NCBI GenBank assembly: GCA_032718475.1
Contig: JAUCBJ010003596.1
Location: forward strand, 1 to 49,821
DNA length: 49,821 bases
Direction of reading: 5' to 3'
Source: Nemertoderma westbladi
Taxonomy: Eukaryota; Animalia; Xenacoelomorpha
Shown: in pieces, positions 16,901 through 47,400 of the stretch
How positions within the stretch are numbered: position 1 is the first letter of the stretch
How the letters are laid out: the number at the start of each line of letters is the position of its first letter
The notes under the pieces: generated by a model
Told to the model about the DNA's origin: nothing
What the model saw: the letters and a program-made list of their open reading frames with translations, nothing else
Databases searched by the model: none
Translations under genes and position numbers: made by a program

Positions 16901-17694
16901 TACTTATACAAAATGTACTTCTCCGTAAAAATATGTTTGAATTATCAAGTCTAATATTAGGCCTAATAAAATTACTCCAGGGCTGATCAACAATGGGTAA
17001 ATTATACTTCTTATACTAATTTGCACTTCGTAGTAACATTTGAGACAATTTATTGAAAAGCATTGGCCTAATTAATTATATTATATGTTATATATATATT
17101 ATAAGTATTGCCAGAGTGGTGCGGTATAGTCGAGGAAATTTTACAAACCCACCACCGCGAAATTAAATTGAATGAATTTAAATATATACAGTAGGGGCTA
17201 CGGTAAAAAATATAACTTAAATAGACAAAATTCTAATTGCGAAATATAATTATTATTCTTGAATGCCAATAATATACTGTGTGGGGCGATTGAGGTTACC
17301 CAATTTCATGAAGAAGTCCTATGGAACACAATAAACGGAACATCTGTGCCGTGAAACATTGCCATTGCTTGGCTGCTTCAGTCCCTTTATGTGCTAAACT
17401 GCGCTGATCATAGAAATCTGCCCATAAATTGCACTGGTGTTCATTGTCAGTTATGTGATTGGCTAATAAAATTAGCAGTCGTATAGAGAGTGAATTATTG
17501 TGGCTGTGTTGCTTTGGGCAAAGCAAGATATCATTTAGGAAGGGCAGCTGTCACATTTTATCTGGTCGGGAAATATGTACAGTTTGTTCTGTTTCGACCG
17601 CTAAGTCTACATTACGCAATAAACCAACGCGTTTACACTACAGCCACCACAGAGAACAAAGTTTAATATGGATTCAAATCTCAGAACCACCAAA

Positions 17695-18206
17695 CGGACG
17701 GACGGACGGACGGACGGACGGACGGACGGACGGACGGACGGACGGACGGACACCCCCGTTCGGGGTAAATAAGCACAATAAAATAAAGTTAGACATTATA
17801 TGTGGACATATTTATACTGTCCAACCCTTCACCATATACTGTAGTTAGTAATGAGATAAAAGGAGCGTGTGAGCAGCTATAGTTGGGCGAGAGTAGCGAG
17901 TGGGGGGCAGGATGGGCATACGAGTACGTGATATCGGTCCTTGGAAGAATGGTTGCAGTAGCGACAGCAACACGAGCCAGATAGGTCATGGAATGGGCGG
18001 CGGTCAGTGCAAAGGAGGTGGTGAAATCCGTGAGCTGTAGCGCGAGTTATGACGTGTCTGTTTCGTTGACCAGGTCGGCGCCACGACGGGTTGTTGAATG
18101 CCGGCCCTCGCGTGTATTGTTCGGAAACGAAATTCTGTTCACGTTCCCTCCGGAATGCGTTATAATTATTTAAGACATCTTGTCTGAGTACTGAAGCTGG
18201 TGAATC
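17695..18206 (-). mobile_element. 3' part of the interrupted LINE: ORF C-terminus (stop at 17877), 3' UTR and (CCGT)n tail
   Basis: Reading from 32126 across the GAATC TSD continues in frame: ...ILRDSPASVLRQDVLNNY...TAHGFHHLLC...CRYCNHSSKDRYHVLVC...* (CCHC finger). Microsatellite tail at 17695-17750. Confidence 0.88.
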
Positions 18207-19443
18207 TGTTCGCGCTTTTGAAGACCTTTAGCAGTTTAACCTGCCAAAATTTATATGTCTTTTAGTTAATTAACACACCTTTAGCATACGACAATATTTT
18301 ATGCTAATACGCAAAACATTAGCCGAAGCCAGCCCATGCGCGATCATTCACCCGATGGATCTACACCCGGGAGGCTGAATTCGGATGCTTAGATTTTATT
18401 ATTGCAGTGTAAGGTTGCAGTGTAAACCTATTGTATTATTCGATAGATCACTAATATGTAATTTCTGACAGATATTATTAACTTTCGGGAAATATTAACA
18501 GTTCCTTTAGGACGTGGCGCTCTATCTATTTAAACAGAGCTAGGACTTATACTAAACGCAACGATAAGGCTTATGATTAAAGTATAAGTCGCATTCTTTA
18601 GGAAATGCTTTGTTACCAGTCACATCACACTCACAATCATGCACACTATTCTGCCGACCGTCAGTATATTTGATCACACATAAAGAGAACAGCAATTGAC
18701 TCAGGTAGTGTCTACTAAATAACATTAGATTCAATACACACCACATTGATATAAATCGCAATTGTTATATATAGCCCGCCTCTCTAACCTGTAGTGTATC
18801 AAGAAAATTGGGAATTTTGGGTGATTTATCCGTATTCTCCAAAGAGCAATATTTCCATCAACAAATAGATACAATTAATAACTGACGGTAAATAACAGTA
18901 CAAACAATATGATTAGTGCAGTTGAATTAAGTGAGGTAACACCGCCGCCGGTAACAGTTATACTTTCTATAATCTAAGCAGTTTTACTAGAGTTCTTCCC
19001 AAAAAGCCGGTGTTTCTGGCTTAGACAGCAATAACAACAAAGTATCAAGAAAAAACAGTAAGACTGAACACTCTCCTTATGATCGGCTGAAAAGCTACAC
19101 GTCGACAGGAAAAATCGCTCTGATTGGCTCAAGCCAAACAAAGAACCGTACATCCAATGGCTGTTTCCATGTCAGCAACCAGCTGTTAGATGTCGTAATA
19201 TGAATCATCACGGCTAAGCTGTGAAAGGTAATTAATGCATTACAGGTTTTTTGCCTTACCATGTCCGCCAAAACACGTATATAGCAGAATTACTTTTATG
19301 TCCGTTAAAACACCTGTAAAGGTACCTTGCGGGCGAGGGGAATATATATACAGTCAGAGAACCTTTTTTAGAGTATTCCAGCGCCTGGGGGAAACTGGAT
19401 TGCGAAGCAAAGGGGCCAGTTATATCCCACAGAAGCTTTTACA
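18207..19443 (-). repeat. 3' LTR (1237 bp)
   Basis: Direct repeat of 30889-32125. The minus strand begins TGTAAAAGC and ends CGCGAACA, with a CCAAT box (~19125), a TATA-like TATATAA (~18770) and AATAAA (~18397). Confidence 0.96.
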
Positions 19444-19521
19444 CCGCTCCCAGAAAATGGGATTTAAGTCTATAAAATATACAAAATCACAGTTTCTCAA
19501 ATACGAAAATACTCTAAACAG

Positions 19522-20810
19522 TTAGTCTTTCATGCGCGGACGGCGTTTACGCAGTTTTTTAAAGCTAGCCAGAGTCTTTTTCTCTTTGGGGCGAGCCACT
19601 TTACAAGGAGGGCTATAACTCCTGGGTGAAGGGTGCAACATGATTGCATCAGAGGGTATAGGATTATGGTCGGTGTATCCGCCAGTCGAAGTGCCGAGTT
19701 GATTGACATCAACGTCGGGGGAGAGGGGTCTAACGGCTTTGAGAGCTCGTTTCAAGACAGCCGCTCTTACGGGTCCTTTACGAGTGGTCTGAATGAGGGC
19801 CGTGGGTGGACCATAGGCAGTTAGAAACTTCCTTGGTTTAATGGTTCTTTCCAACTCGCGTTCGCGGGCTCGGTACTCGTAAGGCCGTCGATATACTTCC
19901 TGTAACTCGATATGCGTGATTTCTGTTCGACAGAAGCGAATAGATAAGGATGGAACGCATAAATTCCTTCGTAAGCGCGTCCAGGATAATAGCGATGGCG
20001 CGAATCACGATGTAAATCAGCGTTCGCTTCCCAAGCTCTAATGTAACGTAGTGTGATCATTTCATCTACGCTTTCCAAATCGCGATTAAAAGGGCAATCG
20101 AAACTGGCGTGTCCCTTTAGTGGACAGTGGTGACATTGAGTCATAAATTGGGGGCAAACCGCAAAAATATGCAAATTATTAAATCTGCAATACGCTCAAT
20201 AAATTTCCATCGCCGGTTGTTCGTGGAAATAGGAACAGCGGACGTTTGTGTCTATGGGCGTAACATGGTCTCTCGATGCGCATAACCGACAACGTTGCCG
20301 AGAAACATAGTTGGCATGGCGATAATCGTACGCAGTGAGACACTGTGGACCTTGATACCATTCTAGGATGTAATCGTTATCGCTGTTCCGAGCGCGATAG
20401 GCTGAATCTCCTCAGATTCTAGACATATTGGTTCGTCTTCCCAGTCTGTTACGAATAGAATTTTCGTGATCTATTCTCGGTTTATCGTTACGACGCCGCT
20501 GGGTATGATATTTAAATAGAACCATTTCCCTTTCGGTGTCTACATCGTCCGTATCATGTAAATCGATAGGATGGCCGCTGGTTAAGAAGTCCATATACGT
20601 ACCATTGCGATTCGTATAGCGAGCGGTGAATTTTCTATAGTCCAATTCACGCGTAAGTTGTTCCTGGGACATCGGCGGTTCGATATAACGACCATCGTCC
20701 TCCGTAATAGTCGGATCGGCTTCACCGCGTATCAAGCTATCCACAAACGCTTGTAAAGGTAGAGTATATCGCTCTCTAATACCAAGGTCATCTTCTATCA
20801 ATTCCGTCAT
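19522..20810 (-). pseudogene. Degenerate accessory ORF of the LTR element (zinc-knuckle protein with a basic C-terminus)
   Basis: 20810-19821 is a single frame broken only by two TGAs (20414-20412, 20198-20196). It contains CRLCASRDH and CHHCPLKGHASFDC (Cx2Cx4Hx4C). The overlapping ORF 19854-19522 ends KKLRKRRPRMKD. Confidence 0.6.
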
Positions 20811-22432
20811 ATCTGCTATCTGAGTTTGTTAATATCAATATAAGTTAATATTTTAGGCCAGCGGGCGTCGCTGCCTACTAGGCTTTTTGCCCCCGGACAG
20901 TGGGTTTCTCAGCGCCGATGTACCGCTGTCGCAGTGTTTACGCCAACATGTAGCACAGCACGACAACGATAACCGGCACAAGTCCCACCACTGTCCGTCC
21001 CAAAGGCTTGAATCCACTTGAGGTTATCTCGGTAGAGTTAAGGCTATTTTACAATTGCGATTAGCTACTGTAAACACACTTTAGTAGTAACATTCACCTA
21101 TAAACGCACAAATTCCATACAATCATTACTTACTGCACACATGCATACCATTTGTCCGTTAGTCAGTGTCTTCCAGAATGTCACGTATTTACTATGTATC
21201 CTTGGATACTAATAGTGCGCTATGTATACTCTTATGCTACGCAATGGGGCAAGCTTTTTATTGTTCTTTTAACTTGCTTCTAATTCTAGCGTGGGTGTTG
21301 CCATGGTGACATTATGGAAAACTAGCGGTAGAATTAGGGCAATCCTCATGCATACAGATCTGGGATGTTATTTAATAGTAATTCTTTAATTGTCAATATC
21401 CTCTTTATGCATGATTTTATAAATTTTATCGGCTATTGACTATATGTTGGAGATTCTCGCGCTCTAGTACACTCAATATGAATCTCCGCTCCCATGATCT
21501 ATTAATTACTGGAATTTTGGGAATGTTGTAAATTGCACAAAATGGCAATTTATGAAATTCATTCGAATATGAATTTAAATTTATTCCCGTGAATTTTATT
21601 ATTTGATATTAAATTGACATAAATTTTATTCCAGAGCATATCTGGGGACTCAGGATCCTTAATTCTGTAAATAGTCCTTCTAAGAATATCGGTAAATACT
21701 GCGATATCTTAATTGACTAGAAATTTTAAAGGATCGGGATTTTACAGATTTTAACAAATATTAAATTAATATTTAGGATGGGCACCAATTTATTCCAGAA
21801 CTTGTCTGGGGACGTTAACCACTGATTCTAGAATTTGTCTTTCAAGTATATCGGTGGGTGCCACGATATCTTAATCGACTAGAATTACAGAAGGTCAAAA
21901 GTTTAACAGATTTATTTGCGATTTACGCTACTGTTAGAGGGACCTCACGCTACTATATGTATTATTTGTTATAAGGTAGAAGAGCAATATCGCACGAAGC
22001 AATGTCAGTGTGAAGAGGCAAGTCGTTTCCAAGGTCTACCCAGAGCTTGGTTTAGCCGAGACACGAGGATCTAAACTTTGCATTCCTAATACTCTGCCTA
22101 CCAATAATACTTAAATATAGTAGTGGCTTTATTGTACTTTAATAAGTACGGACATGTCATCTTACTATAGTCTCGCATTTATAATATAATACGGACAGTA
22201 AGGAAAGAGAAAAATAATTATTTCTTGCCGTCGCACTAAATATATTATAAGTAATTAAGTACGTAATAAACACTAATATATTGCACTAATTTACTAAATA
22301 ATCGCTAAAATAACATTCTACTAAATAAAATTAAAGAAAACGATTATAATAAAATTACGTAATAATACATACATAAATATAAAATAAAAACAAATATAAA
22401 ATGATATAGTCACACACCCACTCCATATGTTA

Positions 22433-25390
22433 TTACGTTATGGAGTCCCTAGATATTTGTCGGATTAGGGAAGTGGTCGTAGGAAGAGTATCTTGCCTTC
22501 CATAGTTTCCGGACAGTTTTTGGTCTCTTTCCAGTAAACATAAACGACCAGCTGGGTGATTGGGTTGTCGTGTTACTTTCTCCGCTCCCTTGGCCTGTCT
22601 ACTCTCCGCCGTGGTAAGATGAGGAGGCCATTCATCTTCTTCTTTACTTAGGGAGTCGGGTCCACCTAACCAGCCGGGAGTATCTATCCGTTCTTGAGGA
22701 GTCGCTCCTCTGGAAGCGATGTCGGCTAGATTAATCATCTCGGGGCGATGTCTCCATTGATCTTCATTGGAGTTAATATCGTCATTATCTGAGGAGTATG
22801 GTGTTCCCTCAGTTAGTTCGTCCACATCACTGCTCTCCACTTCCCCCTTTACTTGGTATACCTGTTGTTGAGGTAATCTCTCTTTGAGAGTTCTACGGGA
22901 AGGGCCAGTGAAGTACCAACCTACTCTAGTTCTTACCGCATAGGTTTGTAGTGGCTGTGGTTGAGCAGGCCGTTTCTCTAATGGCTCGAGCGCCTCATGC
23001 GCGTTTTGGCCGATGAGTATTTGCACTCCATGATAATCGGTTTGGAATCGAGGTATCTCAAGATGTTGGATGCACTCGTCCTCGTCCCAATTATAAAGGT
23101 CTGCTTGGGTAGTAGCGAAGTTCTTTATAGCCACCATTTTTACTGACCTTATACTTTGTGCTCCTAATTTATCCTGGGGGGTGGACAACGCACCTACATA
23201 GTAATCTGCCGTTATGGTAGATTTCCAAACCTGCATAATTCCGGACATATTCAACTTAGTTTGGAATTTGGGTTGTCCAGCAAAGATATCTTCGGCTAGT
23301 TCTTGATCGATGAATGTTCCTGTGCTGCCGGAGTCAAGTAGGGCGTTCACTATGTAACTCTTGTTGGGACCATGAACTCGAACTTGCACTACAGGAAATT
23401 CTCTTATTCCTATGTTGGAAGTTGGAACTTTCCAAGATGGTTGTTTGTCAAAAGGAGTTGGAGTAAACTCGTCAGTGTCCTTTTCATCCGTAAGTGCTCG
23501 ATACACTGTGGTATTTATTAGGTAACAGGATTCGTTGGCATCGGAGAATTCGTCCGTATAGAATCCTTCCCACTCAGAACTTTGGTCAGTGTCGTTCACA
23601 TCACTGAATTGGACATGTGATTTGGGCTCACTTACCTGACTAGGGTTGTTTCGTTCGAATTCCGTGTGCAACAAGCTATGATGTTTCGCGCCGCACTTAG
23701 CACACCTTGCGTCAGAGTAACAGGTTCGCCGCTGGTGTCCGCGTCTGAGACAGTTATAACATAACCGTTTATCCCACAGGACTCCACGTCTATCTGCCAT
23801 GGATTTCTTTAGGAATTCTGCACACGCACTCAAACGGTGGGGCCCGTCGCACAGCGCACATTTTGGTTTGATGTTACTCACCTTAACTTGGTTAACGTTC
23901 TGCACTCTCGTTCTTTCTTCGGGCTTTCTTCCGTGAATTCTCTTAGGAGACGTAGGAGGAGTTGTTGTTACCTGTTCTCTCCTGTCACTGGTTCGAGACT
24001 TGTATTTACTTACGTCTTTATAGGTCTTGTTGTCATAGTAAGATCGTTCGGTGTCTTTCCCGCTGTCCTCTTCTTGAGAAGCTTGGCTTTCGCCGTCGTC
24101 AGTATAACACACTGGTATTATCCTTCTCCTAGAATCGGGTTTCTCACTTACCTTATTTTCCGATGTTTTCTCTCTGGCCTGCCTTATGAGTTGTAATTTT
24201 ACTTCACTATCTAAGAAAGACATGAGATCAGCCATGGTAGGACTTCGTCGTTGTTGTTCATTCATGTACAACACTTTCTTGTCCCAGCGCGTACATACTC
24301 CACCCTTTGGTAAAGTAGAGACTACGGCTCCAATAACCATGGAACTCTGATATTCATGCGACTTACCTAACCAGTCCAGTTGTCTACAGATCTCTTGAAT
24401 TTCATCGGAAAACTCTATAATCCCACTACTAAGGAAGTGTCGGGGGGCTACTAATTTTGTATACAAATACTTAGCTATGTTATCTTTGTTACCATACCTG
24501 ATATTTAATGTATCCCAAACTTGTCTTAATCCATCTGGATGTCCAATAAACTTTAACGCCATTAACTTGGGAGGTCCTTCCAAACACTTGATGAGGAATC
24601 TAAGTTTCTCTCCGTTAGATAGTACAGAGTTCTGTATGCTATCTTTGTAATATTCGTTGAAAGGTAACCATTTCATCTCATCTCCATTGAATTTGACGAT
24701 CTCTCCCACTTTGACCGCTTGGCGGGCTTCTGTTCTAGCCATCTGGCGCGTAAAGCTTTCTTGGGCCATCGTGTTATTTAATATCGAATTATCGGTATAT
24801 AAATTTCTCGGATCATTATCAGGTCTATAGGGAATATCATTAATAACAGGTCTATAATCACCCTTAATAGGGTTTGTTATAGGAGTTTCAACTTCACTAG
24901 CAGTATAGATGCGTGTAGGCTCCACACCTTGCGCATGTAATACTTCAGACCTAACAGGTTGACACAATGTTACAGGGGGTATTGGTATGCCCTTTTGTAT
25001 ATTGACTAATTTGTCGCGTTCTAGTGCGATACTTTGCTGCACTTCTTGCAACTCTGCTCTACCTTCCCTCACTGTTCCCTTAAGTTGGTGGACAGTCTCC
25101 TGCATCTGTCCTAGCAGGAGATTCATCCCCCGCCGTCCCTCTTCCACCCACTCAACCGCCGAAGCGGGAGTCGCCAACATAGTAGCGGGCTGACGCGGGA
25201 CGACGGGAGACAAATTATTGATTTCTCTCTCTGCTATCTGGACAGGGGTATTTGCATGGACTGTTCCACCGGGTACAGGCAGTGTAGTGCTGTGTAAAGG
25301 GAATTTAGAGTTAAGCTCTGGAAGTGCAGGGGTCTCTAGCACAGAAGTGACTTGGGGAACGACAGGCCTAATTATTTCAGGCTCATCAAC
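22433..25390 (-). CDS. BEL/Pao Gag-protease polyprotein, 3' part, with vestigial pol ends
   Basis: DUF1759-like FNGDEMKWLPF...LSNGEKLRFLIKCLEG; knuckles CALCDGPHRLSAC, CYNCLRRGHQRRTC and CAKCGAKHHSLLH; protease ALLDSGSTGTFI...ILIG; remnant WRH..INLADIASRG...WLGGPDSL....EWP. Confidence 0.92.
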   Translation of the reverse strand, partial: VDEPEIIRPVVPQVTSVLETPALPELNSKFPLHSTTLPVPGGTVHANTPVQIAEREINNLSPVVPRQPATMLATPASAVEWVEEGRRGMNLLLGQMQETVHQLKGTVREGRAELQEVQQSIALERDKLVNIQKGIPIPPVTLCQPVRSEVLHAQGVEPTRIYTASEVETPITNPIKGDYRPVINDIPYRPDNDPRNLYTDNSILNNTMAQESFTRQMARTEARQAVKVGEIVKFNGDEMKWLPFNEYYKDSIQNSVLSNGEKLRFLIKCLEGPPKLMALKFIGHPDGLRQVWDTLNIRYGNKDNIAKYLYTKLVAPRHFLSSGIIEFSDEIQEICRQLDWLGKSHEYQSSMVIGAVVSTLPKGGVCTRWDKKVLYMNEQQRRSPTMADLMSFLDSEVKLQLIRQAREKTSENKVSEKPDSRRRIIPVCYTDDGESQASQEEDSGKDTERSYYDNKTYKDVSKYKSRTSDRREQVTTTPPTSPKRIHGRKPEERTRVQNVNQVKVSNIKPKCALCDGPHRLSACAEFLKKSMADRRGVLWDKRLCYNCLRRGHQRRTCYSDARCAKCGAKHHSLLHTEFERNNPSQVSEPKSHVQFSDVNDTDQSSEWEGFYTDEFSDANESCYLINTTVYRALTDEKDTDEFTPTPFDKQPSWKVPTSNIGIREFPVVQVRVHGPNKSYIVNALLDSGSTGTFIDQELAEDIFAGQPKFQTKLNMSGIMQVWKSTITADYYVGALSTPQDKLGAQSIRSVKMVAIKNFATTQADLYNWDEDECIQHLEIPRFQTDYHGVQILIGQNAHEALEPLEKRPAQPQPLQTYAVRTRVGWYFTGPSRRTLKERLPQQQVYQVKGEVESSDVDELTEGTPYSSDNDDINSNEDQWRHRPEMINLADIASRGATPQERIDTPGWLGGPDSLSKEEDEWPPHLTTAESRQAKGAEKVTRQPNHPAGRLCLLERDQKLSGNYGRQDTLPTTTSLIRQISRDSIT

Positions 25391-25394
25391 TATT

Positions 25395-27403
25395 CTGCCG
25401 TTGTTTGGCAATACACCCTATCCTAAAAAAACACATTTTGAGATATTAACCTAAACGCGTTTCCCCTAATTCAACATTGAAGACATTGTGAGAAATCGCT
25501 GATAATGGGTCCTAAGGGAACTTAACAGGCCAACTTAGATTTTTTTAATAGAATAGATGGTGAGAGATGACGTAAAAGGGATTAAAGTGATGAAATAAAA
25601 TTATAGGCTGTTTTGCCATTCAATGTGAGCTGATTTGATGGAGATAGGGTGTTTAACCAATGGTTCTGGTTTCAAAGAAACTAGTATAAAACAGTGATTT
25701 TTTGTTCTGCCAGCATGATTTGTAGAGCATTTTGTATCACGTATTATTAGTTTAGAGCTTGCTGGAGTTGGGGTGTATTGCCATGTCAACAAGAAGTCAA
25801 AATGATGAATGATGAGGTGACTAAAATTAATTCCTTCCCAAATAAATACAAAAAGTAAAGGTATTTATTTAACCATCATCCCCAGTTCCAACCACATCTC
25901 CACCTTCCCCAGTTCCAACCACATCTCCACCTTCCCCCGTTCCAACCACATCTCTACCATCCCCAGTTCCAACAACAATTCCACCTTCCCCAGTTCCAAC
26001 AACCACTCCACCTTCCCCCGTTCCAACCACATCTCCACCTTCCCCAATTCCAACAACCATTCCACCTTCCCCAGTTCCAACCACATCTCCACCTTCCCCC
26101 GTTCCAACCACATCTCTACCATCCCCAGTTCCAACAACAATTCCACCTTCCCCAGTTCCAACAACCACTCCACCTTCCCCCGTTCCAACCACATCTCCAC
26201 CTTCCCCAGTTCCAACAACCATTCCACCTCCCCCAGTTCCAACCACATCTCCACCTTCCCCAGTTCCAACAACCATTCCACCTTCCCCAGTTCCAACAAC
26301 CATTCCACCTTCCCCAGTTCCAACAACCACTCCACCTTCCCCCGTTCCAACCACATCTCTACCATCCCCAGTTCCAACAACAATTCCACCTTCCCCAGTT
26401 CCAACAACCACTCCACCTTCCCCCGTTCCAACCACATCTCCACCTTCCCCAGTTCCAACAACCACTCCACCTTCCCCCGTTCCAACCACATCTCCTCCTT
26501 CCCCCATTCCAACAACCACTCCACCTTCCCCCGTTCCAACAACCATTCCACCTTCCCCAGTTCCAACAACAATTCCACCTTCCCCAGTTCCAACAACCAC
26601 TCCACCTTCCCCCGTTCCAACAACCATTCCACTTTCCCCAGTTCCAACAACCATTCCACCTCCCCCAGTTCCAACAACCATTCCACCTTCCCCAGTTCCA
26701 ACAAGAGCTCCATCTTCTTCACCTTCCGCTTCCCCAGTACCTAACACTACATCACCCATCCCAGGCCCGCGTCCAACTACTCCATCTGTCCCAGTTCCTA
26801 TTTCTCCTTCTGATGTAATAACAAATCTAAAAAACGTATCCAGATTCTCTTCCTCGTCATTATTGTCAAACTCCATTTCCCCTTAAAACTTACAAGACTG
26901 TTAGTACATTGTTGGTTGTAATAAAGAGTAAATTCCTAACAAAAATCAATATAACTAGATAGGGTAAATTAATTAGCGCCAGGTCAAATTAAAATAACTA
27001 AAATTAATTTCCCGCCAGACAGAGTTACCTTTAAGTAGTGTAAATAAATATTAAATGACAAAGGATATTACTTCTGATTGGTCAATTCCTTAACTAATTG
27101 ATTGGCTTAAAAGTAAAGCGCAAGGCAAAAAACCCTAACTCAAGGATAGGGTTATTTGGTCGACAGAGATAACAAAGCAAAGCACCCTATATGGTCGAAT
27201 TTAGCTATGGGGGGTTTTGCCTCGAAGCTGTTGATTTAAGATGCTGCCATGGGGTGTTTTAAGATTGAAAAAGTCCGATTTCGTGAAAGGAACACCCCAC
27301 TTTTCTTAGTTTCATTGAAAAGAGCGTGTCAAGTTACCCCAATTGGTCAAATAAAATTTTTTTTGAAAATTTTGAGATAGGGTGTATTGCCAAACAACGG
27401 CAG
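25395..27403. mobile_element. Non-autonomous TIR DNA transposon (2009 bp; possibly Sola-like) inserted in gag
   Basis: Perfect 28-bp TIRs CTGCCGTTGTTTGGCAATACACCCTATC (25395-25422 / 27376-27403); 4-bp TSD TATT (25391-25394, 27404-27407). The superfamily call is tentative and rests on the 4-bp AT-rich TSD. Confidence 0.9.
25873..26710. repeat. 27-bp minisatellite (CCACCTTCCCCAGTTCCAACAACCACT-type), ~31 copies, inside the TIR element
   Basis: Visible tandem array; translates as (GTGEGGxVV)n in ORF 25869-26876. Confidence 0.93.
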
Positions 27404-28645
27404 TATTGTAGGTAGTCTTTTGACCTGAATGGTTTGGTCTGTAGGTTCTGTACTACCTAACTCTGTGCTAGCTAGTTGTCTTCTGACAGCTGGGGGCAAA
27501 TCAGGCAATTTGTGACGGTAAGATGTTTTTCTACGCCTGTTTAGACGAGATCTATTTCCTCCGCCTTCAGGATCGGTGGTCTCGCCTTCCTCCGAGGATG
27601 TGTATCCCTGGCGCTTGGGAGTAGCTTTTCTCATCATCTGCATTTGATTAGCAGTAAACTGTTTATTTATACTGTCTTGTGTCTCTTGCAGATTTTCCAA
27701 CTCCAGTTGGGTAGTCTGCTCAGCGGCTCTCCGTTCTGCTTCGGCCACTGCCCTTTCCGCCTTTGCTTCTGCCGCCGCTGCCTTTCTTTTTGCTTCTGCT
27801 TCTGCCGCTGCTGCCTTTCTTTCTGCTTCTACTTCTGCCGCCGCTGCCTTTTCTGCTTTTCTTTCTGCTTCTGCATCTGCCATAGCTGCCGCCTTTTGTT
27901 CCTCTATCCTTCTTTTCTTTATTTGTTCTTCTCGGACTCTAATGAGGCGGAGTTTTTCATCACATTCAGCTTGGTTTGCAGCTAACATTTCGGCATCGAT
28001 TGCGTCCAACACAAGCTTGGTTCCTTCACTATTAGGGGAAAGTCCAGACAGCCGTCTCCTCAACTCTTCGTCTCCTAGGAATCGCTGATAGTCGGACAAA
28101 TAAATGTCGATAGCGTCTCTAGTTCGCGGCTTCTCTGCTGATGTTAATTCGCTTTCCACTTCGCTTTCCACCTCGCTTTCCACTTCGCTTTCCACCTCAC
28201 TTTCCACTTCGCTTTCCACCTCACTTTCCACTTGAGAAGAAGTGGCGTCGATTGATTCCCCACAGGCTGGCCGCCCATCATAAACCGTATCCGCCATCTT
28301 CGCTCCGCGTTCTGGCGTCCGCTCAACAGTATCCGAACTACTGGAGCTATCGGACCGCTGAGAACCAGGTTCTTGGCTAGGAGGTTGCTGCTGTTTTATA
28401 GCTTCTTCTTGATCCCGCTTGACTTGGGCCCGAGTGCCTATGGCAGACCAACGGCGCTTCACTAACTTCGCAAATTGCGAAATCTTTTCTACCAACCTAG
28501 GTTCTGTCACAACCACTGCAGGGGTTGCTCTTCTTATAGTATGAGGGGTTTCAGACCTCGGTCTGGGATTCTCTACACTTTGATCTGAGAAACAGGCTGT
28601 TGTTTCTAGGAGACTATCTGACAGAGTTTGCCTTGTGTCAGCCAT
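27404..28645 (-). CDS. BEL/Pao Gag, 5' part (414 aa; ESEV repeats, Ala/Glu/Lys coiled coil)
   Basis: Removing the TIR element plus one TSD joins ...KRLPTI|VDEPEII... in frame with 22433-25390. Confidence 0.85.
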
Positions 28646-30004
28646 GTTTGATTGTACAGTCGAATGCCTACTGCTATATTACAGTTAAAGCAAGTCTAGT
28701 AATTCAGTATCACTGTTAGCCTAATAATTAATTACCGATACTGCTACTCAGTGTAGCGTGATATATATATAATATATTAGAATACCGGTATGCTTATAAT
28801 ATATATATAAGTATTATTACAGACTAGATTTGTCACAGAGTACCGGTATATAATTTTAGCACAAATATATATAAATATATAATAGGCCTATCGTGAATAC
28901 CGGTATACAGCCTACACTTATAGTATATAAGTATAATTCTGGACTATAATTAATTACAGAGTACCGGTATGATTTCAGCACAAATTTATAGAAATAAATA
29001 TAATAAGCCTATGGTAAATACCGGTATGTCAATTATTTTAGAATAATTGAATTTCTGAATATTTTAGGGTTACTTGGTTACTTTAACTTACTTTATTACC
29101 GTTATTTAAGCAGCAGTCCAACTGATATTGAGACCTAGTTGTTGTATGGCAGGCCTACTATTTATAAATCGTTTGAGTTGATTTATAATATTTATATACC
29201 CGTTATATGGGTTTTTGTCAATATTTGAAATAATGTTATTATTTCTGGGGGGTCACTACACAGAAGCTGTGCGCTCTCAGTGGAGTGCTATTTATTGGAC
29301 ACTAAAACAGATAATTCTAATTTACCTAAGTTACTTAATACTACAAATTACTTACGATACGGGTGAGATTAAATCTCTAATTAAACACAACAAAAATATT
29401 ACGTACGAAATTTTTAGGGTAATTTTACAGGAAGTCTACAAACCAGCCTAACAAAGGGTTAGATTTCTGGCTATTACAAAGGACAGGGTACTACGGTATT
29501 TAAATAATAAGTAGTAGTAAATATATTGTACTGTCCAGATAGGAAAATACCACCGCCTGACGACCTATAACCGTATCGCTATAGGTACTACGTTATGTAT
29601 CACGGATTGTTCCTACCCGGAAGCTAATAGAGCTAACGAATGTGCCTATCAACCACTTTACAACACAAATATACTGCCTACACTAATTACTTCGGAAGGC
29701 ACTGTACTCTAAACCCTAAATTAGGTACAAGTACCGGTATAACAAATAATCAGTAGTTAAATATACTTGAACAGTTAAAAGAACCACGGCATCTGCTGGA
29801 GTGACCGAAGCACCAAGTCGTCAGTCTTTACCTACGCCAAGCAGCCCTGATGTAGTACCGGAGTTAGTTTAACTATAACGGTATGTATAACAAGCACAAT
29901 TACTGTAGGAATAAACTTGGGGACATGAATGTTGCGAATAATCGCATAAACTCTGAATAATAAATATTACGCTACCCGTACAGAATACTCAAACAAATAC
30001 AAAC

Positions 30005-30520
30005 CAAAACGCTGGCAGACTACTATCAAGCCTAAACAAACTACAGTATGTGCAGATTCTGAAACTGTTAGTTAGTATGCGTTCTAACACGGTAGTACGA
30101 CTTACTCTTTAAGAGGGGATTGTCCTTACAGCATATGGCTGCCCCAACTTACTAACGGCACTTGATCAGACCAACTCTACACACGCAGCAATCCCTTCAG
30201 ACCTAAAAATAGCTAGACAACAATCCAGCCTACAAATATTTGAGTAATAACTAGTACGGTACCTGAACAGACCACACAAACAAACACAGGCTAAAACACT
30301 GGCAGACTACGATCAAGCCTAAATAAACTACAGTATATGCAGACTCTGAAACTGTTAGTTAGTATGCGTTCTAACACGGTAGTACGACTTATTCTTTAAG
30401 AGGGGATTGACCTTCAGCATATGGCTGCCCCAACTTACTAACGGCACTTTATCAGACAAACTCTACACACGCCGTAATCTCTCCAAACTCAACAACAGTC
30501 AGACAGCAGCTCAGCCTACA
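30005..30520. repeat. Diverged direct duplication (~230-bp copies, ~288-bp spacing) in the 5' leader of the LTR element
   Basis: ctggcagactac...ctgaaactgttagttagtatgcgttctaacacggtagtacgactta...cagcatatggctgccccaacttactaacggcact occurs twice. Confidence 0.88.
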
Positions 30521-30888
30521 ATTATCTGGACAATCTGAGCAGGGTCACACGCCTTCTGCTCAATATTAGCCTACTAGTAAATAAAACTGAAAGAAATAGA
30601 CCTAAGTAAAATCTCAATAAAAACCAGGCGTCCCCGATTTAATATCGAGACCTACCGGTATACAATAATCAAAATCGAATAATACTAAATGTACTTGTAC
30701 AGCAGTACCGGTACCGGTGATGACAGTTAGGCCTACTGACCTACAGAAGCACCGGTTCAGTTTTACCAGTCACTACGGTATTTTGTAACCTTATTGCCTA
30801 CTGCAATAAGATCGATAACTGTTACTGTTCGACAGAACAGTATTAAACTGTATTTAATGCTTACACTGCAATAGAAACTAACTGTTAC

Positions 30889-32125
30889 TGTTCGCGCTTT
30901 TGAAGACCTTTAGCAGTTTAACCTGCCAAAATTTATATGTCTTTTAGTTAATTAACACACCTTTAGCATACGACAATATTTTATGCTAATACGCAAAACA
31001 TTAGCCGAAGCCAGCCCATGCGCGATCATTCACCCGATGGATCTACACCCGGGAGGCTGAATTCGGATGCTTAGATTTTATTATTGCAGTGTAAGGTTGC
31101 AGTGTAAACCTATTGTATTATTCGATAGATCACTAATATGTAATTTCTGACAGATATTATTAACTTTCGGGAAATATTAACAGTTCCTTTAGGACGTGGC
31201 GCTCTATCTATTTAAACAGAGCTAGGACTTATACTAAACGCAACGATAAGGCTTATGATTAAAGTATAAGTCGCATTCTTTAGGAAATGCTTTGTTACCA
31301 GTCACATCACACTCACAATCATGCACACTATTCTGCCGACCGTCAGTATATTTGATCACACATAAAGAGAACAGCAATTGACTCAGGTAGTGTCTACTAA
31401 ATAACATTAGATTCAATACACACCACATTGATATAAATCGCAATTGTTATATATAGCCCGCCTCTCTAACCTGTAGTGTATCAAGAAAATTGGGAATTTT
31501 GGGTGATTTATCCGTATTCTCCAAAGAGCAATATTTCCATCAACAAATAGATACAATTAATAACTGACGGTAAATAACAGTACAAACAATATGATTAGTG
31601 CAGTTGAATTAAGTGAGGTAACACCGCCGCCGGTAACAGTTATACTTTCTATAATCTAAGCAGTTTTACTAGAGTTCTTCCCAAAAAGCCGGTGTTTCTG
31701 GCTTAGACAGCAATAACAACAAAGTATCAAGAAAAAACAGTAAGACTGAACACTCTCCTTATGATCGGCTGAAAAGCTACACGTCGACAGGAAAAATCGC
31801 TCTGATTGGCTCAAGCCAAACAAAGAACCGTACATCCAATGGCTGTTTCCATGTCAGCAACCAGCTGTTAGATGTCGTAATATGAATCATCACGGCTAAG
31901 CTGTGAAAGGTAATTAATGCATTACAGGTTTTTTGCCTTACCATGTCCGCCAAAACACGTATATAGCAGAATTACTTTTATGTCCGTTAAAACACCTGTA
32001 AAGGTACCTTGCGGGCGAGGGGAATATATATACAGTCAGAGAACCTTTTTTAGAGTATTCCAGCGCCTGGGGGAAACTGGATTGCGAAGCAAAGGGGCCA
32101 GTTATATCCCACAGAAGCTTTTACA
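30889..32125 (-). repeat. 5' LTR (1237 bp)
   Basis: Same length as 18207-19443 and, by eye, the same sequence; the ORF track shows an identical 69-aa ORF in both copies. Confidence 0.96.
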
Positions 32126-34288
32126 GAATCTCTGAGGATGTCTTGGACAAGGGTGCTCTGATTTAACAGATTTAGAACCATTGTAGATGAGGCCGATTTA
32201 TGTAAGCTGAGCATCCGTTTGCAATACATTGATTTGACCCTGTCGATATCTTTCAGGTTAGCTAGAGTTAGGAACGGCGAGATTTCTGTGATAGCATATA
32301 ATATAATTGGGGCGATTTTTGCTTTGAATATTTGGAGGCCGGTGTCAATAGACATGAGAGGGAGATTATTAAGACAACCTATGGCGCTGTACGCTTTTTT
32401 CTTTTTCTTTAAGATATGACGAGTGAAGCAAAGGGTTGGTTGCATTGTAACTCCAAGATATTCGTACTCATTTGTGATTGGGACAATGTCACCTCCGTAA
32501 GTAAATTGATCTGTGTTGGACAATCGACCTGCTTTTCTGAATTTTACTATTTTTGTCTTAGTTAGGTTTACTATCATTCCATTATCTAGAGACCAGTCGT
32601 GTAATACATTTAATGCATTCTGAATGGATTCTTTATTACTTGAGAAGAAGGCTAGGTCGTCAGCATAGAATATAAATTTAACTAAAACAACCAGTTGACG
32701 CAGACGCGTGGCCAGGTCAGCGATGAAAATTAAAAAGCAAGTGGGAGAGAAACAATCGCCCTGTAGTACGCCGCGGAGTTGTTCTATAACGTTTGACAGT
32801 TGTAGCCCGTCAAAGACACGGAGTCTGTTGTCAAATAGGTCTTTAACAAGATTATACAGCTTTCCCCGGATACCAAAATTGTACAACTTGTAGAGTAGGA
32901 CTGCTCTGTTAACCATGTCGAAGGCCTTCTTGAAGTCCACAAAGGCCATACAGTAGATGTGCCGATCCGACCGCGCTGGTTGTTGCAAGGCAGAGGCTAT
33001 ATTATTAATAAGAGTCCGAATAGCATGTTGTGTTGATTTACCAATGGAGAAACCGAACTGTTCTGGTGGTAACAAGTGACCTATGTGTAGGCGAACTCTA
33101 GTGTTTATAATCGATGTGAAGATCTTGAGCATTACACAGATTAACGCGATGCCTCGGTAACTATCAGGATTAGATACTGCACCCATACCTTTGTACAATA
33201 TTACAATGATGCTCTCCTTCCATTTGGTCGGAATTTTCCCAATATTTAAGCATGTGTTATACAGTAATGTTAACATTGTGACTATAAAAGGAGCTAATTG
33301 TTTTAAATGTTCATAGAATATTCTGTCAGAGCCGCTAGCCTTTTTATTGGAAGAGTTGTTTATTGTTGAGTAAACCTCCTCTTCTGTGATCTCGGAGTTG
33401 AACCAGTCATTCGAGTTCATTTCAGCTTCATTCGTAGTGGGAATAGATGGCGCATTCCTAGCGGCAGACTGCTGCCCAAGGACATTGGTAAAATGAGATT
33501 CCAGTGTATTCGAATCTATTGGTGCGACTGAGGACTTTCTCTTCTCATTCATACACCACGGATTTATTTCTGAGTTTGAAATCAGTTCGAGTAGGCATTT
33601 TTCCTTGTAGGCCGAGCGTTTATTCTTAGTAAGTACCTTATACTGTTTCCTAGTTGTCCAGAATAATGTATTGTCATTATCGGAATTGTTTCGAGTTGAC
33701 ATGGCGGCCAGTAAAGAGGTTTTTAATGCCCGGCATTCGCTATCGAACCAGGGCTTGTTTATTCGGGGGAGCTCGCTTGGGGGCTGTGAAGTCAGATACT
33801 GCGCCAGTTAGGAGTTGGACTGCAGTCTCAATATCGTTTCGCTGGAGTGATATTCCAATTTCCACGAGATTTTGGTGTTCTATGAAGGTTGTAATGTTTA
33901 TTTTCCGTGAAAGGTTCTGTAATCGGGGTTGGTAGGAGTGGTTCCAGGTTAGTTCCATTTCCATTACAACACGGACGGAAACAGGTTGGTGTTTACGAAA
34001 GGGTTGTCTGCCAACACATGCAGTCGGTAGGTGCTTTGGGGTTGGGCCGTAATATTTTATAAACAGTAAGTCAATAACACTATCTCCTTGAGGTGAGATG
34101 TATGTGTGAGAGTTTGGCTGGTTTAGCTCATTAAAACCGAGAGTATATTTTAGAGAGTCCGTAAGGTCCCTGCCCCATGTGCCGTAGTCCATACGGCAGT
34201 TAAAGTCACCACCTATGACGATGGTCATTGGTTGGGTGGTGAATGAAAGGGCGTTGTTAAGGGTGAGACAAATGTCAGCAACTCTCAA
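32126..34288 (-). mobile_element. LINE (APE endonuclease + RT), 5'-truncated, interrupted by the LTR element
   Basis: Endonuclease motifs GGDFN, TYIS..G.SVIDL; linker KPWFDSECR; RT motifs KASGSDRI, SYRGIAL, QFGF, FVDFKKAFD, GVLQGDCFSP, FYADD, YEYLG. One frameshift near 33760-33780. Confidence 0.93.
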
Positions 34289-34545
34289 AAATCAGCAAAA
34301 ATCAATACTTTATAGTAAATAGATAATTTGTAAATATCAAATCATTTTACGAATATAAGATAAATAAATACAATTGACGAAAGCCAAACCAACCACCACC
34401 AAAACAAGTCAATGAAACCGATCCATTACCTTAATGTACAAATAAATTAACAAACATTAGACGGGTATTGTCATTGAAACCAGGAATCCCTTATCAACAA
34501 ATTTATCCACCATTGTACTGTATATAGCAACCAATAGGTCTGTCA

Positions 34546-41705: not shown

Positions 41706-42523
41706 TTACTGCACAATTGTGGATTGCATAGATTGCTTATTTTGGCTCTCGTGCTGCGCGAAAGCCGCACAACATGTTAACTAACCGACTAATGAAACGA
41801 ACATTAAAATACATAAAATATCGTACAGTACCCATTAAACTCAAGTAAAACGGGAAATTTAACTACTAAAAACGATTAACTACAGTAAATAAAATATTAA
41901 CTAATGAAACGAACTTTAAAATTTATAAAATATTGTGCCAAAAAAACGCAAATAAAACGAACATTAAAATTTAACTACTAACAAAACAAAACGAATAACT
42001 ACGGAGACCGACGTAGGATATAGGTTCTAAATTACAGTAGTACAAATAAATTAATACATGAGATGAGTCTAAAATTGTTTAATCTAAAATAAAGTATGGT
42101 CCGTACAGTAGCGGCCAAATATTTAAATTACACATTACCTGTACACCATTAGGGAATGAATTTTAGTGGGAGTTTTTCGTAATGCTTGTTTAAGCGCGAC
42201 TCAAAAACGTTCGATGATACGACAAATTCAGATAAAGCATTCCAATGGTCGATTACCCGAAAGTGGAACGTGGCGTTTCGTTGCTGAAGTCGTGCTTGCG
42301 GTTTAAATAACTTTCTCGAGTGGCCACGCCTACCAGATTCTTCTTGCTCTTGGTAATGGTAGCGGTAGGTAGCAGCGATCCTGATCCTGTGAAGGACGTA
42401 GTTACCTTTATATTTTTTAAATTATACCGTACTGCAGGGTGTACTGGTGTAGCGTGTAGCCTACTGTAGTCCGGTACTACAGTACTGTAGTATAGCTGTA
42501 TAGGTTATACCAAAGTTATCCAT

Positions 42524-43726
42524 ATGGACACAAAGAGACTAAAGACAGACAATCCTGAGGCCTCGGCAACTTCTCCAGACACTCTCCACCAGAATGGAAG
42601 TCTCCAAACCGCGGCTAATAATTCTACGAACACAGCTATGATAGAAGACCCTGTTGAGGATGTGTACGCACCGAAATACGCAGACAAAGCCTACCAATAC
42701 TGTATAAAGTATATGCACGGAGCCTGGCGGGATTTAAAGAGAATAGACTTTAAATGCGGCCACCTTAGTGGAGGAATGAGCAACCTGCTGTTTCTGTGTG
42801 CCTTATCCGAGGATATCGCGCTGATCGGGAAGGAGCCAAGACGCGTATTACTGCGGATATTCGGAAAAATGATAGAATGCCCTGTTCGCGAGAACGTTGT
42901 CTTCAGTATACTTGCCGAGAAGGGGCTGGGCCCCAGGGCTTACGGAGTCTTTAAGGAAGGCCGTCTGGAGGAGTATATAGAGAACTCTCGACCTCTTTGT
43001 AACTTGGAGTTATCAGAGAGCGCCATATACGAATCGGTGGCTCGCGATTTGGCAACTATTCATTACTTAGAGATGCCTTTACCAAAGGAGCCGATATCAG
43101 TAGTCAACAAAATGGAGGACTGGATGAGAGCACTTGTCTCATTAATAAGCCCAGAATCAGTCGACACCTCAGCTAATAGTTACACTAGCGTTCTTAGAGA
43201 TATATTTTCTGGACATAATTTAATCGAGGAGTTCAAATTTGCCATCGATTTACTGAAATCCTCGAAATCTCCCGTAGTTTTTTGTCACAACGATTTGCAG
43301 TGCGGCAATCTTCTGTTCCGTAAACCCTGTCCAGTTGGCTGTAAGTCGGTAGTTTTTATCGATTTCGAATATTGCGGCTACAATTTCCAAGCGTTCGACT
43401 TCGCTAATCATTTTAACGAGTACATGTTCGACTATTCGATTCGGGTTCCTCCGTATTTCGCGTGTAACGAGTCGCTTTACCCGGATAAACATCAGCAACT
43501 TCAGTTCTTGGAGGTTTATATGGAGAAAGTAATTGATTCCAGTGGCTGTCTGGCGGTTGAGGATTTGCTCGAAGAGATAGCTAGACTGGCTGTCGTTGTT
43601 AACATCGTGTGGGCGCTCTGGTCTCTTGTAATGGTGGTTTGTTCCGACCTAGGGGACTTCGATTATTTATCGCACGGAAAATTTAGATTAAAACTAGCGA
43701 ATCAATTCAAATCAAATCTTAAATAA
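42524..43726 (+). CDS. CHK: Choline/ethanolamine kinase (CHKA/CHKB-like), single exon, 400 aa
   Basis: GGMSNLLFLC, EPRRVLLRIFG, LGPRAYGVF..GRLEEYI, Brenner motif CHNDLQCGNLL and choline kinase motif IDFEYCGYN..AFDFANHFNE. Confidence 0.95.
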   Translation: MDTKRLKTDNPEASATSPDTLHQNGSLQTAANNSTNTAMIEDPVEDVYAPKYADKAYQYCIKYMHGAWRDLKRIDFKCGHLSGGMSNLLFLCALSEDIALIGKEPRRVLLRIFGKMIECPVRENVVFSILAEKGLGPRAYGVFKEGRLEEYIENSRPLCNLELSESAIYESVARDLATIHYLEMPLPKEPISVVNKMEDWMRALVSLISPESVDTSANSYTSVLRDIFSGHNLIEEFKFAIDLLKSSKSPVVFCHNDLQCGNLLFRKPCPVGCKSVVFIDFEYCGYNFQAFDFANHFNEYMFDYSIRVPPYFACNESLYPDKHQQLQFLEVYMEKVIDSSGCLAVEDLLEEIARLAVVVNIVWALWSLVMVVCSDLGDFDYLSHGKFRLKLANQFKSNLK

Positions 43727-44490: not shown

Positions 44491-47400
44491 TTAGTATCTA
44501 TTATACTATAGATACTGTTAGTATCTATTATACTATAGATACTGTTAGTATCTATTATACTATAGATACTGTTAGTATCTATTATACTATAGATACTGTT
44601 AGTATCTATTATACTATAGATACTGTTAGTATCTATTATACTATAGATACTGTTAGTATCTATTATACTATAGATACTGTTAGTATCTATTATACTATAG
44701 ATACTGTTAGTATCTATTATACTATAGATACTGTTAGTATCTATTATACTATAGATACTGTTAGTATCTATTATACTATAGATACTGTTAGTATCTATTA
44801 TACTATAGATACTGTTAGTATCTATTATACTATAGATACTGTTAGTATCTATTATACTATAGATACTGTTAGTATCTATTATACTATAGATACTGTTAGT
44901 ATCTATTATACTATAGATACTGTTAGTATCTATTATACTATAGATACTGTTAGTATCTATTATACTATAGATACTGTTAGTATCTATTATACTATAGATA
45001 CTGTTAGTATCTATTATACTATAGATACTGTTAGTATCTATTATACTATAGATACTGTTAGTATCTATTATACTATAGATACTGTTAGTATCTATTATAC
45101 TATAGATACTGTTAGTATCTATTATACTATAGATACTGTTAGTATCTATTATACTATAGATACTGTTAGTATCTATTATACTATAGATACTGTTAGTATC
45201 TATTATACTATAGATACTGTTAGTATCTATTATACTATAGATACTGTTAGTATCTATTATACTATAGATACTGTTAGTATCTATTATACTATAGATACTG
45301 TTAGTATCTATTATACTATAGATACTGTTAGTATCTATTATACTATAGATACTGTTAGTATCTATTATACTATAGATACTGTTAGTATCTATTATACTAT
45401 AGATACTGTTAGTATCTATTATACTATAGATACTGTTAGTATCTATTATACTATAGATACTGTTAGTATCTATTATACTATAGATACTGTTAGTATCTAT
45501 TATACTATAGATACTGTTAGTATCTATTATACTATAGATACTGTTAGTATCTATTATACTATAGATACTGTTAGTATCTATTATACTATAGATACTGTTA
45601 GTATCTATTATACTATAGATACTGTTAGTATCTATTATACTATAGATACTGTTAGTATCTATTATACTATAGATGATACTGTTAGTATCTATTATACTAT
45701 AGATACTGTTAGTATCTATTATACTATAGATACTGTTAGTATCTATTATACTATAGATACTGTTAGTATCTATTATACTATAGATACTGTTAGTATCTAT
45801 TATACTATAGATACTGTTAGTATCTATTATACTATAGATACTGTTAGTATCTATTATACTATAGATACTGTTAGTATCTATTATACTATAGATACTGTTA
45901 GTATCTATTATACTATAGATACTGTTAGTATCTATTATACTATAGATACTGTTAGTATCTATTATACTATAGATACTGTTAGTATCTATTATACTATAGA
46001 TACTGTTAGTATCTATTATACTATAGATACTGTTAGTATCTATTATACTATAGATACTGTTAGTATCTATTATACTATAGATACTGTTAGTATCTATTAT
46101 ACTATAGATACTGTTAGTATCTATTATACTATAGATACTGTTAGTATCTATTATACTATAGATACTGTTAGTATCTATTATACTATAGATACTGTTAGTA
46201 TCTATTATACTATAGATACTGTTAGTATCTATTATACTATAGATACTGTTAGTATCTATTATACTATAGATACTGTTAGTATCTATTATACTATAGATAC
46301 TGTTAGTATCTATTATACTATAGATACTGTTAGTATCTATTATACTATAGATACTGTTAGTATCTATTATACTATAGATACTGTTAGTATCTATTATACT
46401 ATAGATACTGTTAGTATCTATTATACTATAGATACTGTTAGTATCTATTATACTATAGATACTGTTAGTATCTATTATACTATAGATACTGTTAGTATCT
46501 ATTATACTATAGATACTGTTAGTATCTATTATACTATAGATACTGTTAGTATCTATTATACTATAGATACTGTTAGTATCTATTATACTATAGATACTGT
46601 TAGTATCTATTATACTATAGATACTGTTAGTATCTATTATACTATAGATACTGTTAGTATCTATTATACTATAGATACTGTTAGTATCTATTATACTATA
46701 GATACTGTTAGTATCTATTATACTATAGATACTGTTAGTATCTATTATACTATAGATACTGTTAGTATCTATTATACTATAGATACTGTTAGTATCTATT
46801 ATACTATAGATACTGTTAGTATCTATTATACTATAGATACTGTTAGTATCTATTATACTATAGATACTGTTAGTATCTATTATACTATAGATACTGTTAG
46901 TATCTATTATACTATAGATACTGTTAGTATCTATTATACTATAGATACTGTTAGTATCTATTATACTATAGATACTGTTAGTATCTATTATACTATAGAT
47001 ACTGTTAGTATCTATTATACTATAGATACTGTTAGTATCTATTATACTATAGATACTGTTAGTATCTATTATACTATAGATACTGTTAGTATCTATTATA
47101 CTATAGATACTGTTAGTATCTATTATACTATAGATACTGTTAGTATCTATTATACTATAGATACTGTTAGTATCTATTATACTATAGATACTGTTAGTAT
47201 CTATTATACTATAGATACTGTTAGTATCTATTATACTATAGATACTGTTAGTATCTATTATACTATAGATACTGTTAGTATCTATTATACTATAGATACT
47301 GTTAGTATCTATTATACTATAGATACTGTTAGTATCTATTATACTATAGATACTGTTAGTATCTATTATACTATAGATACTGTTAGTATCTATTATACTA

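Follow-up and report, generated by a model that had tools for sequence, protein, structure and literature searches.

A young non-autonomous BEL/Pao retrotransposon of Nemertoderma westbladi that probably primes reverse transcription with its own RNA

Self-priming of reverse transcription has been shown for the fission yeast element Tf1 and predicted in some Ty3/gypsy and Ty1/copia groups, and BEL/Pao elements are officially described as tRNA-primed. In the accessible text of PMC7175516, the Tf1 primer is 11 nt long, with the cut made between bases 11 and 12; the primer site is copied by reverse transcription into the cDNA's 3' end, according to the portion available of PMC11042837. Tf1, Tf2, Tj1, Tosmo and the Tf1/sushi group are described, in the available sections of PMC7175516, PMC4600332 and bioRxiv 10.1101/2022.12.06.519325, as lacking a tRNA site and carrying an 11-nt LTR segment complementary to the site that follows the LTR. 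The plant literature, as excerpted from PMC6317226, predicts self-priming from a complementarity of at least 10 bp that starts 0–5 bp past the LTR. For the Belpaoviridae, the ICTV profile (PMC8742986) gives priming by a host tRNA, with an 18-nt site for tRNA-Arg or tRNA-Gly. The accessible parts of PMC3601003, PMC5445492 and PMC6934838 mention self-priming for other groups only, and term searches of the main text of PMC554778, PMC3118150 and PMC6238403 found no mention of tRNA. The preliminary description of the present locus knew of no self-priming in BEL/Pao; our literature search, to which older subscription papers, Repbase/GyDB records and supplements were external, likewise found no report of self-priming or of splice-built primers in this superfamily.

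The window, a 49,821-nt stretch of DNA (contig JAUCBJ010003596.1), contains a young non-autonomous derivative of a BEL/Pao LTR retrotransposon that is dependent on a helper (Table 1). The whole element, 13.9 kb long, runs from 32125 to 18207 on the minus strand and has a 5-bp GATTC target duplication on both flanks (32130–32126 and 18206–18202). When the first 44.3 kb of the window were compared with themselves, one long perfect direct repeat emerged, the LTR pair, and the insertion is therefore young. The gag frame matches DUF1759 (PF03564, E 2.7e-12) and contains three zinc knuckles, a BEL-type arrangement of gag and protease, and the Pao peptidase (PF05380) is present in all six of six homologues of the element protein. 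Searches with eight BEL proteins (tblastn) found no RT or integrase in the element, and its RNase H remnant comprises 45–50 residues only, so that the assignment to BEL/Pao lacks the full set of RT, RNase H and integrase. Likeness to the Belpaoviridae lies in the LTRs of about 1.2 kb, the DUF1759 gag, zinc knuckles and protease, the RNase H remnant, the purine tract and the 5-bp target duplication; the element differs from them in its length, in having neither RT nor integrase and in the absence of the 18-nt tRNA-Arg/tRNA-Gly site of the ICTV profile (PMC8742986). LTR-bearing contigs from four studies have a depth far above that of the flanking DNA, so the family is abundant, depth not being copy number.

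Table 1. Positions of the LTRs, reading frames and candidate priming elements in the window
Feature	Position	Strand	Description
5' LTR	30889..32125	minus	1,237 bp; TG...CA ends; identical to 3' LTR
3' LTR	18207..19443	minus	1,237 bp; short purine tract (GGGAGCGG) just before
gag (DUF1759, zinc knuckles), protease motif and short RNase H remnant	22433..25417	minus	994-codon ORF
Low-complexity, coiled-coil-like ORF upstream of gag	27347..28678	minus	443 codons; no Pfam match
Primer-binding position, module 1 (GTAACAGTTA)	30879..30888	minus	offset 0 from LTR end; no TGG
Putative self-primer	31633..31643	minus	contiguous in DNA; pairs over 10 bp with module 1 and over 11 bp with module 2
7-bp extension	31646..31652	minus	pairs with 30877–30871 past a bulge; duplex −15.6 kcal/mol
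Second module	30800..30831	minus	LTR-end copy GAACA, 11-nt primer site and hairpin arm
Leader arm of 14-bp stem	30860..30873	minus	exact complement of 31095–31082
Two tandem LTR copies complementary to leader arm	31082..31107	minus	31107–31097 (11 bp) and 31095–31082 (14 bp)
Third stem, 5' arm	31653..31662	minus	10 bp with 31077–31068
Third stem, 3' arm	31068..31077	minus	partner of 31662–31653
Possible intron upstream of primer	31697..31941	minus	donor-like ATG/GTAAGG (31941); U-rich tract with AG near 31745–31697; from sequence only

The gag region is split by an insertion of 2,009 bp (25395–27403), which has long inverted repeats at its termini and a TATT duplication of 4 bp, and inside the insertion lies a 27/81-bp tandem array (25879–26717) with long open frames on both strands. 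The long leader contains a 287-bp tandem duplication of 86% identity (29954–30528), the number of units varying among contigs. Just upstream of the 3' LTR (19522–20828) are several short frames with Cys/His-rich motifs and a zinc-knuckle match that is sub-threshold only, possibly a broken extra 3' gene. The retrotransposon is itself inserted into a LINE-like element (32050–34291 and 17877–18227), whose endonuclease/RT frames lie upstream of the 5' LTR.

The 5' LTR and the leader meet at GAACA/GTAACAGTTAG. The first TGG is found 120 nt downstream of the LTR, at 30768, and a whole-tRNA site is thus absent. Instead, positions 30888–30879 are the exact complement of 31642–31633 inside the LTR (10 nt), and the 3' C of the putative primer (31633) would pair with the first base past the LTR. 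In the second module, 30825–30815 are complementary to 31643–31633 over 11 nt without a mismatch; the start of this module can be covered by a local hairpin. Compared with a Tf1-type site, which adjoins the LTR and is complementary to it over about 11 nt, module 1 offers 10 nt, and module 2 and the family variants described below offer 11 nt. Among dinucleotide shuffles of the LTR, a boundary-anchored match of at least 10 nt arose in 19 of 5,000 (59 of 5,000 when an offset of 0–3 nt was allowed), and the energy of the combined 10+7-bp duplex was attained by 19 of 3,000. Under the laxest test (offset 0–5, spliced matches allowed), two of 21 foreign primer sites matched the long window LTR over 10 nt, which makes the 10-mer only modest evidence by itself; the LTR contains several further 9–10-bp self-complements. 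All coordinates in the preliminary description proved correct on recheck, and the missing TGG-type site, the boundary match, its extension (ATAGAAA/TTTCTAT) and the second module that it reported were all recovered. A segment upstream of the primer (31669–31653) resembles 30922–30906 near the LTR end, possibly through an old internal duplication.

Support for self-priming comes mainly from relatives rather than from the 10-mer of the window element. Starting from a homologue of the window protein, 36 BEL/Pao polyproteins were aligned, and the alignment was used to collect 104 loci (79 metagenome loci and 25 from genome bins). Eighteen families had an LTR end fixed independently by repeat alignment, with some placement by eye for L003, L051 and L079; the other 86 loci had no usable LTR end or duplicated a counted family. 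A self-complement of 10–15 nt starts 0–5 nt past the LTR in 15 of the 18 families. For 12 of these it exists only across a GT–AG splice junction in the LTR, with splice sites that are mostly near-consensus (e.g. GTAAGT...TTTCAG), and for three (L031, L079 and L012) it is contiguous. The softest entries among the 15 are L012, whose contiguous 10-mer is weak (11 of 300 shuffles), and L045, which combines a TGG at offset 1 with a 10-nt spliced self-match (L045 56–70) and could represent a transition between tRNA priming and self-priming. The signature is missing from L003, L084 and L100 (TGG-type), L084 pairing over 11 nt across a junction with one mismatch as read by eye. L006, L025, L030 and L089 have 11-nt spliced matches and were excluded from the count of 15 in 18, their LTR ends having been located by the same scan; nothing convincing was found for a self-complement in L007, L056 and L057.

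Match length and sequence turnover both bear on these pairings. The site of one family, set against the LTR of another, matched over 10 nt in 26 of 462 pairs and over 11 nt in 11 of the 462; in four of those 11-nt cases the two families have the same site. Eleven nucleotides is the commonest match length, found in 12 of the 22 families scored, which include L006, L025 and L030. The 19 tabulated sites comprise 17 different 10-mers, most of them beginning GT, indicating that pairing is kept while the sequence changes. The preliminary description had made its proposal depend on whether relatives conserve the pairing and whether they have a normal primer-binding site; the self-complement recurs in the 15 families with letters that differ by family, and TGG occurs within the first 8 nt in only two of 18. 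The window site begins GTAA at offset 0, as do those of L005, L031, L086 and L097, and its primer is contiguous, as in L031 and L079, rather than across a splice junction. The primer lies 44–193 nt from the LTR end in relatives and ends 744 nt from it in the window element. With its distant, unspliced primer and a 14-bp stem that is not shared, the window element is atypical of the group, and it is a less striking example than the splice-dependent relatives.

The best relatives of the element protein are about 30–37% identical at most. In a gag–protease tree, from which L086, L084, L034 and L081 were left out for their short frames, the branch of the window element is long and falls outside the self-complementary clades, with no support for or against this placement. 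Thirty of the 42 best RT-bearing gag–protease matches fall within a clade (support 0.98) that holds 20 of 22 typed loci; the top match, P0127, groups with arthropod-type elements outside that clade. Searches of viral contigs found no relative. In one locus (L059 1–15884), a BEL/Pao element is assembled in perfect head-to-tail repetition every 6,138 bp, which is either an LTR-sharing array or an artefact of a circular form. Many bacterial and archaeal genome bins (L080–L104) include BEL/Pao contigs, some with whole elements, probably as host-animal contamination; L100 is located in a Wolbachia record.

Two further stems flank the primer duplex in the window element. The 14-bp stem between leader and LTR, which the preliminary description had likened to the U5–leader stems of Tf1, is perfect, and a match of at least 14 nt anywhere in the first 40 nt arose in none of 5,000 shuffles. 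It shares 3 nt with the 7-bp extension, and an AATAAA lies directly downstream of the two tandem LTR copies, at 31082–31077. The third stem adjoins both of the others (one of 5,000 shuffles, in a test chosen post hoc) and could close a three-way junction. Cofolding of the three segments predicts one such junction at −47 kcal/mol, which would be a pseudoknot within one RNA. The nested minimum-energy fold of 31670–30760, by a method that cannot draw pseudoknots, is without the primer/primer-site pairing; the predicted fold of the region is more stable than those of 20 shuffled sequences (z −5.5). Variants at 31073, 31074, 31078 and 31086 are common in family contigs: two produce G–U pairs, one falls inside AATAAA and one would break a third-stem pair unless compensated, and those at 31073 and 31074 would weaken the third stem absent compensation.

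The 14-bp stem was rejected as a feature shared by the group, since none of 18 relatives (here including L006, L025 and L030) reached p<0.05. The 14-bp arm was also considered as the primer, and dismissed by inference, since its match starts 15 nt from the LTR end, compared with 0–5 nt in relatives. The LTR arm of this stem sits where relatives carry their primer, just upstream of AATAAA, which suggests that the extra stems may make up for the 744-nt distance of the primer.

Variation within the family was surveyed by aligning contigs of runs X1 and X3, from two studies, to 30795–31680; the variants recorded appear to be those far from contig ends, some well-supported changes being absent. Module 1 of the window is mismatched at position 11 (30878), and the letter that would give the 11th pair accounts for 15% (X1) and 35% (X3) of depth there. 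Loose ends at 30831 occur in eight contigs of X1 and 11 of X3, with a joint at 30828–30904, and module 2 is directly joined to the last LTR bases in these numbers of contigs (8 and 11). Together, the 30878 variant and the direct joints show that an 11-nt match exists in the family. Depth, which does not measure copy number, is about 6,000 at module 1 and 44,000–58,000 at module 2, and module 1 of the window seems to be a minority form. At 30888, a change from G to A in 17–37% of depth is probably the flank of 3' LTRs and, less probably, a primer-site variant. The tandemly duplicated leader differs between copies, and an exact 23-nt LTR-end pattern had no match in metagenome contigs.

We conclude that the element's own RNA, not a host tRNA, is the likely primer of reverse transcription, a reading drawn from complementarity and its recurrence in relatives. 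Transcription would start upstream of 31662, and LTR positions 31643–31633 would anneal to the first 10–11 nt past the LTR, with the two flanking stems keeping the primer beside its site across a 744-nt loop. By analogy with Tf1, the RT/RNase H of the helper would then cut just 3' of C31633, and the new 3'-OH would be extended by RT into the LTR end. Plus-strand synthesis would recopy the primer site from the primer; such recopying in each cycle would explain both the matched change of primer and site and the match to a spliced junction. For most relatives, primer formation would have to await splicing of the LTR intron; in the window element the primer would be ready-made in the DNA. Of the analogy with Tf1, self-priming gains support, mainly from the 15 of 18 relatives; an RNA start near 31650 and the 14-bp stem as a common feature do not.

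Could a host tRNA half or another host RNA prime instead, the self-match being incidental or merely structural? Half-tRNA priming exists in Ty1/copia lineages, according to the text available of PMC6317226, and the ICTV lists BEL/Pao as tRNA-primed (PMC8742986). A common host primer could explain why most sites begin GT, and it would sit comfortably with the modest weight of the 10-mer under the laxest control. The best candidate we take to be tRNA-Asn, in the form of a 5' half; its anticodon loop is similar to the complement of positions 2–7. At the window site, however, it would presumably form only about six Watson–Crick pairs and two wobbles, with a mismatched 3' end. Past the GT, moreover, the sites differ among families and each tracks the LTR of its own family, in many cases over a splice junction. 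No tRNA-like gene was found in the window or element, ARAGORN found no tRNA gene in the window or the 104 loci, and Rfam gave no match in 17500–33000. We therefore regard host priming as unlikely. We consider it just as doubtful, if not slightly more so, that the complementarity serves a structural or regulatory fold (masking of the 5' poly(A) signal, dimerization, or 5'–3' circularization for strand transfer) with priming achieved otherwise. The placement of AATAAA between two of the stems and the folding score of the region favour such a fold, as does the order of segments, from which the three-way junction would be nested without a pseudoknot if its third strand came from the 3' LTR. A fold of this kind leaves unexplained why the match starts 0–5 nt past the LTR and is about 11 nt long across families, and what the alternative priming agent would be; relatives keep the primer match without the flanking stems. 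Structural roles could also coexist with self-priming.

A different objection concerns the transcript: the primer segment might lie in U3 and be absent from the RNA 5' end, with transcription starting after a GC-box/TATA-like motif at 31462–31447 and priming carried out by the 3'-LTR copy or a partner RNA. GGCGGG followed by TATATA (31462–31450), with CCAAT at 31493, lies downstream of the primer and favours this view. The TATA-like motif is not conserved in the family, however, 31461 differing in about 87% of depth and 31451 in 26–45%, and one divergent contig has the donor-like site at 31470 without the motif; this speaks against transcription starting downstream of the primer. In the 12 relatives with a primer across a splice junction, transcription must include the primer, begin upstream of it and be followed by splicing. 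A U3 location is accordingly very improbable, and the RNA probably does not start near 31650, given these 12 relatives and the donor-like site at 31941. That site is at LTR position 185, and the 11 donors listed in relatives span 171–365; the junction of the possible intron does not match the primer site. A stricter scan of donor–acceptor pairs of the window LTR found no splice-built match of at least nine paired nucleotides to either module. Under a lax scan the best splice-built primer reached 9 nt, equalled by 18 of 60 shuffles, and was rejected. Run X4, whose RNA origin is only guessed and which has no bearing on expression, showed no canonical intron joint. The least credible account, to which we give almost no weight, is that the LTR and leader, being A+T-rich and prone to repeats, acquired the matches by chance or through local duplication: the variable leader duplication and the other LTR self-complements speak for it, and against it stand three adjacent stems, each rare in shuffles, and the anchored signature in 15 of 18 relatives compared with 26 of 462 controls.

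Set beside Tf1, self-priming by the window element would be a known mechanism in a new variant, within a superfamily described as tRNA-primed. Tf1 and the sushi group are Ty3/gypsy chromoviruses, whereas the protein here is BEL/Pao. In the accessible accounts, the Tf1 primer consists of the 11 nt with which the RNA begins, and its cleavage has been shown; the window primer is probably internal, its cleavage is proposed by analogy, and in most BEL/Pao relatives, unlike Tf1, the primer is splice-formed. LTR–leader duplexes also flank the site in Tf1, the three-duplex 'pretzel' of the same accounts; one of its two flanking duplexes has a counterpart here, the 14-bp stem downstream of the site. 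The Tf1 duplex upstream of the site has no clear counterpart, and the third stem here joins two LTR segments. The window element also has the complementarity from which self-priming is predicted in plant TAR elements (Houba as well as Osr-1; Ty1/copia) and Tcn1 elements (PMC6317226); these belong to other superfamilies and hosts, and the available part of that paper mentions no splice-built primer for them.

A broader reading, for which we judge the case to be evenly balanced, is that a broad animal lineage of BEL/Pao has abandoned tRNAs as primers in favour of an internal self-primer, usually assembled by host splicing, which would tie replication to splicing of the 5' LTR. The window family would then be a rearranged branch with a ready-made primer and a family-specific three-way junction that brings the primer across 744 nt to its site while masking the 5' poly(A) signal. 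If this is true, tRNA-independent lineages exist in all three LTR superfamilies, and many BEL/Pao elements of aquatic animals that have no recognizable primer site would be explained. Self-primed elements would, we infer, escape silencing by tRNA fragments. The splice-built primer of relatives would connect host splicing to the initiation of reverse transcription in a new way, with exact and testable predictions of the cut site.

The region looks heterochromatic. Three large satellite arrays occupy 4135–6969, 8312–15345 and 44491–49821, with units of 44 bp, 46/82 bp and 27 bp. Two long uninterrupted frames are present, one encoding an MPND-like protein with RAMA and JAB domains (284–1705) and the other a choline/ethanolamine kinase (42491–43726).
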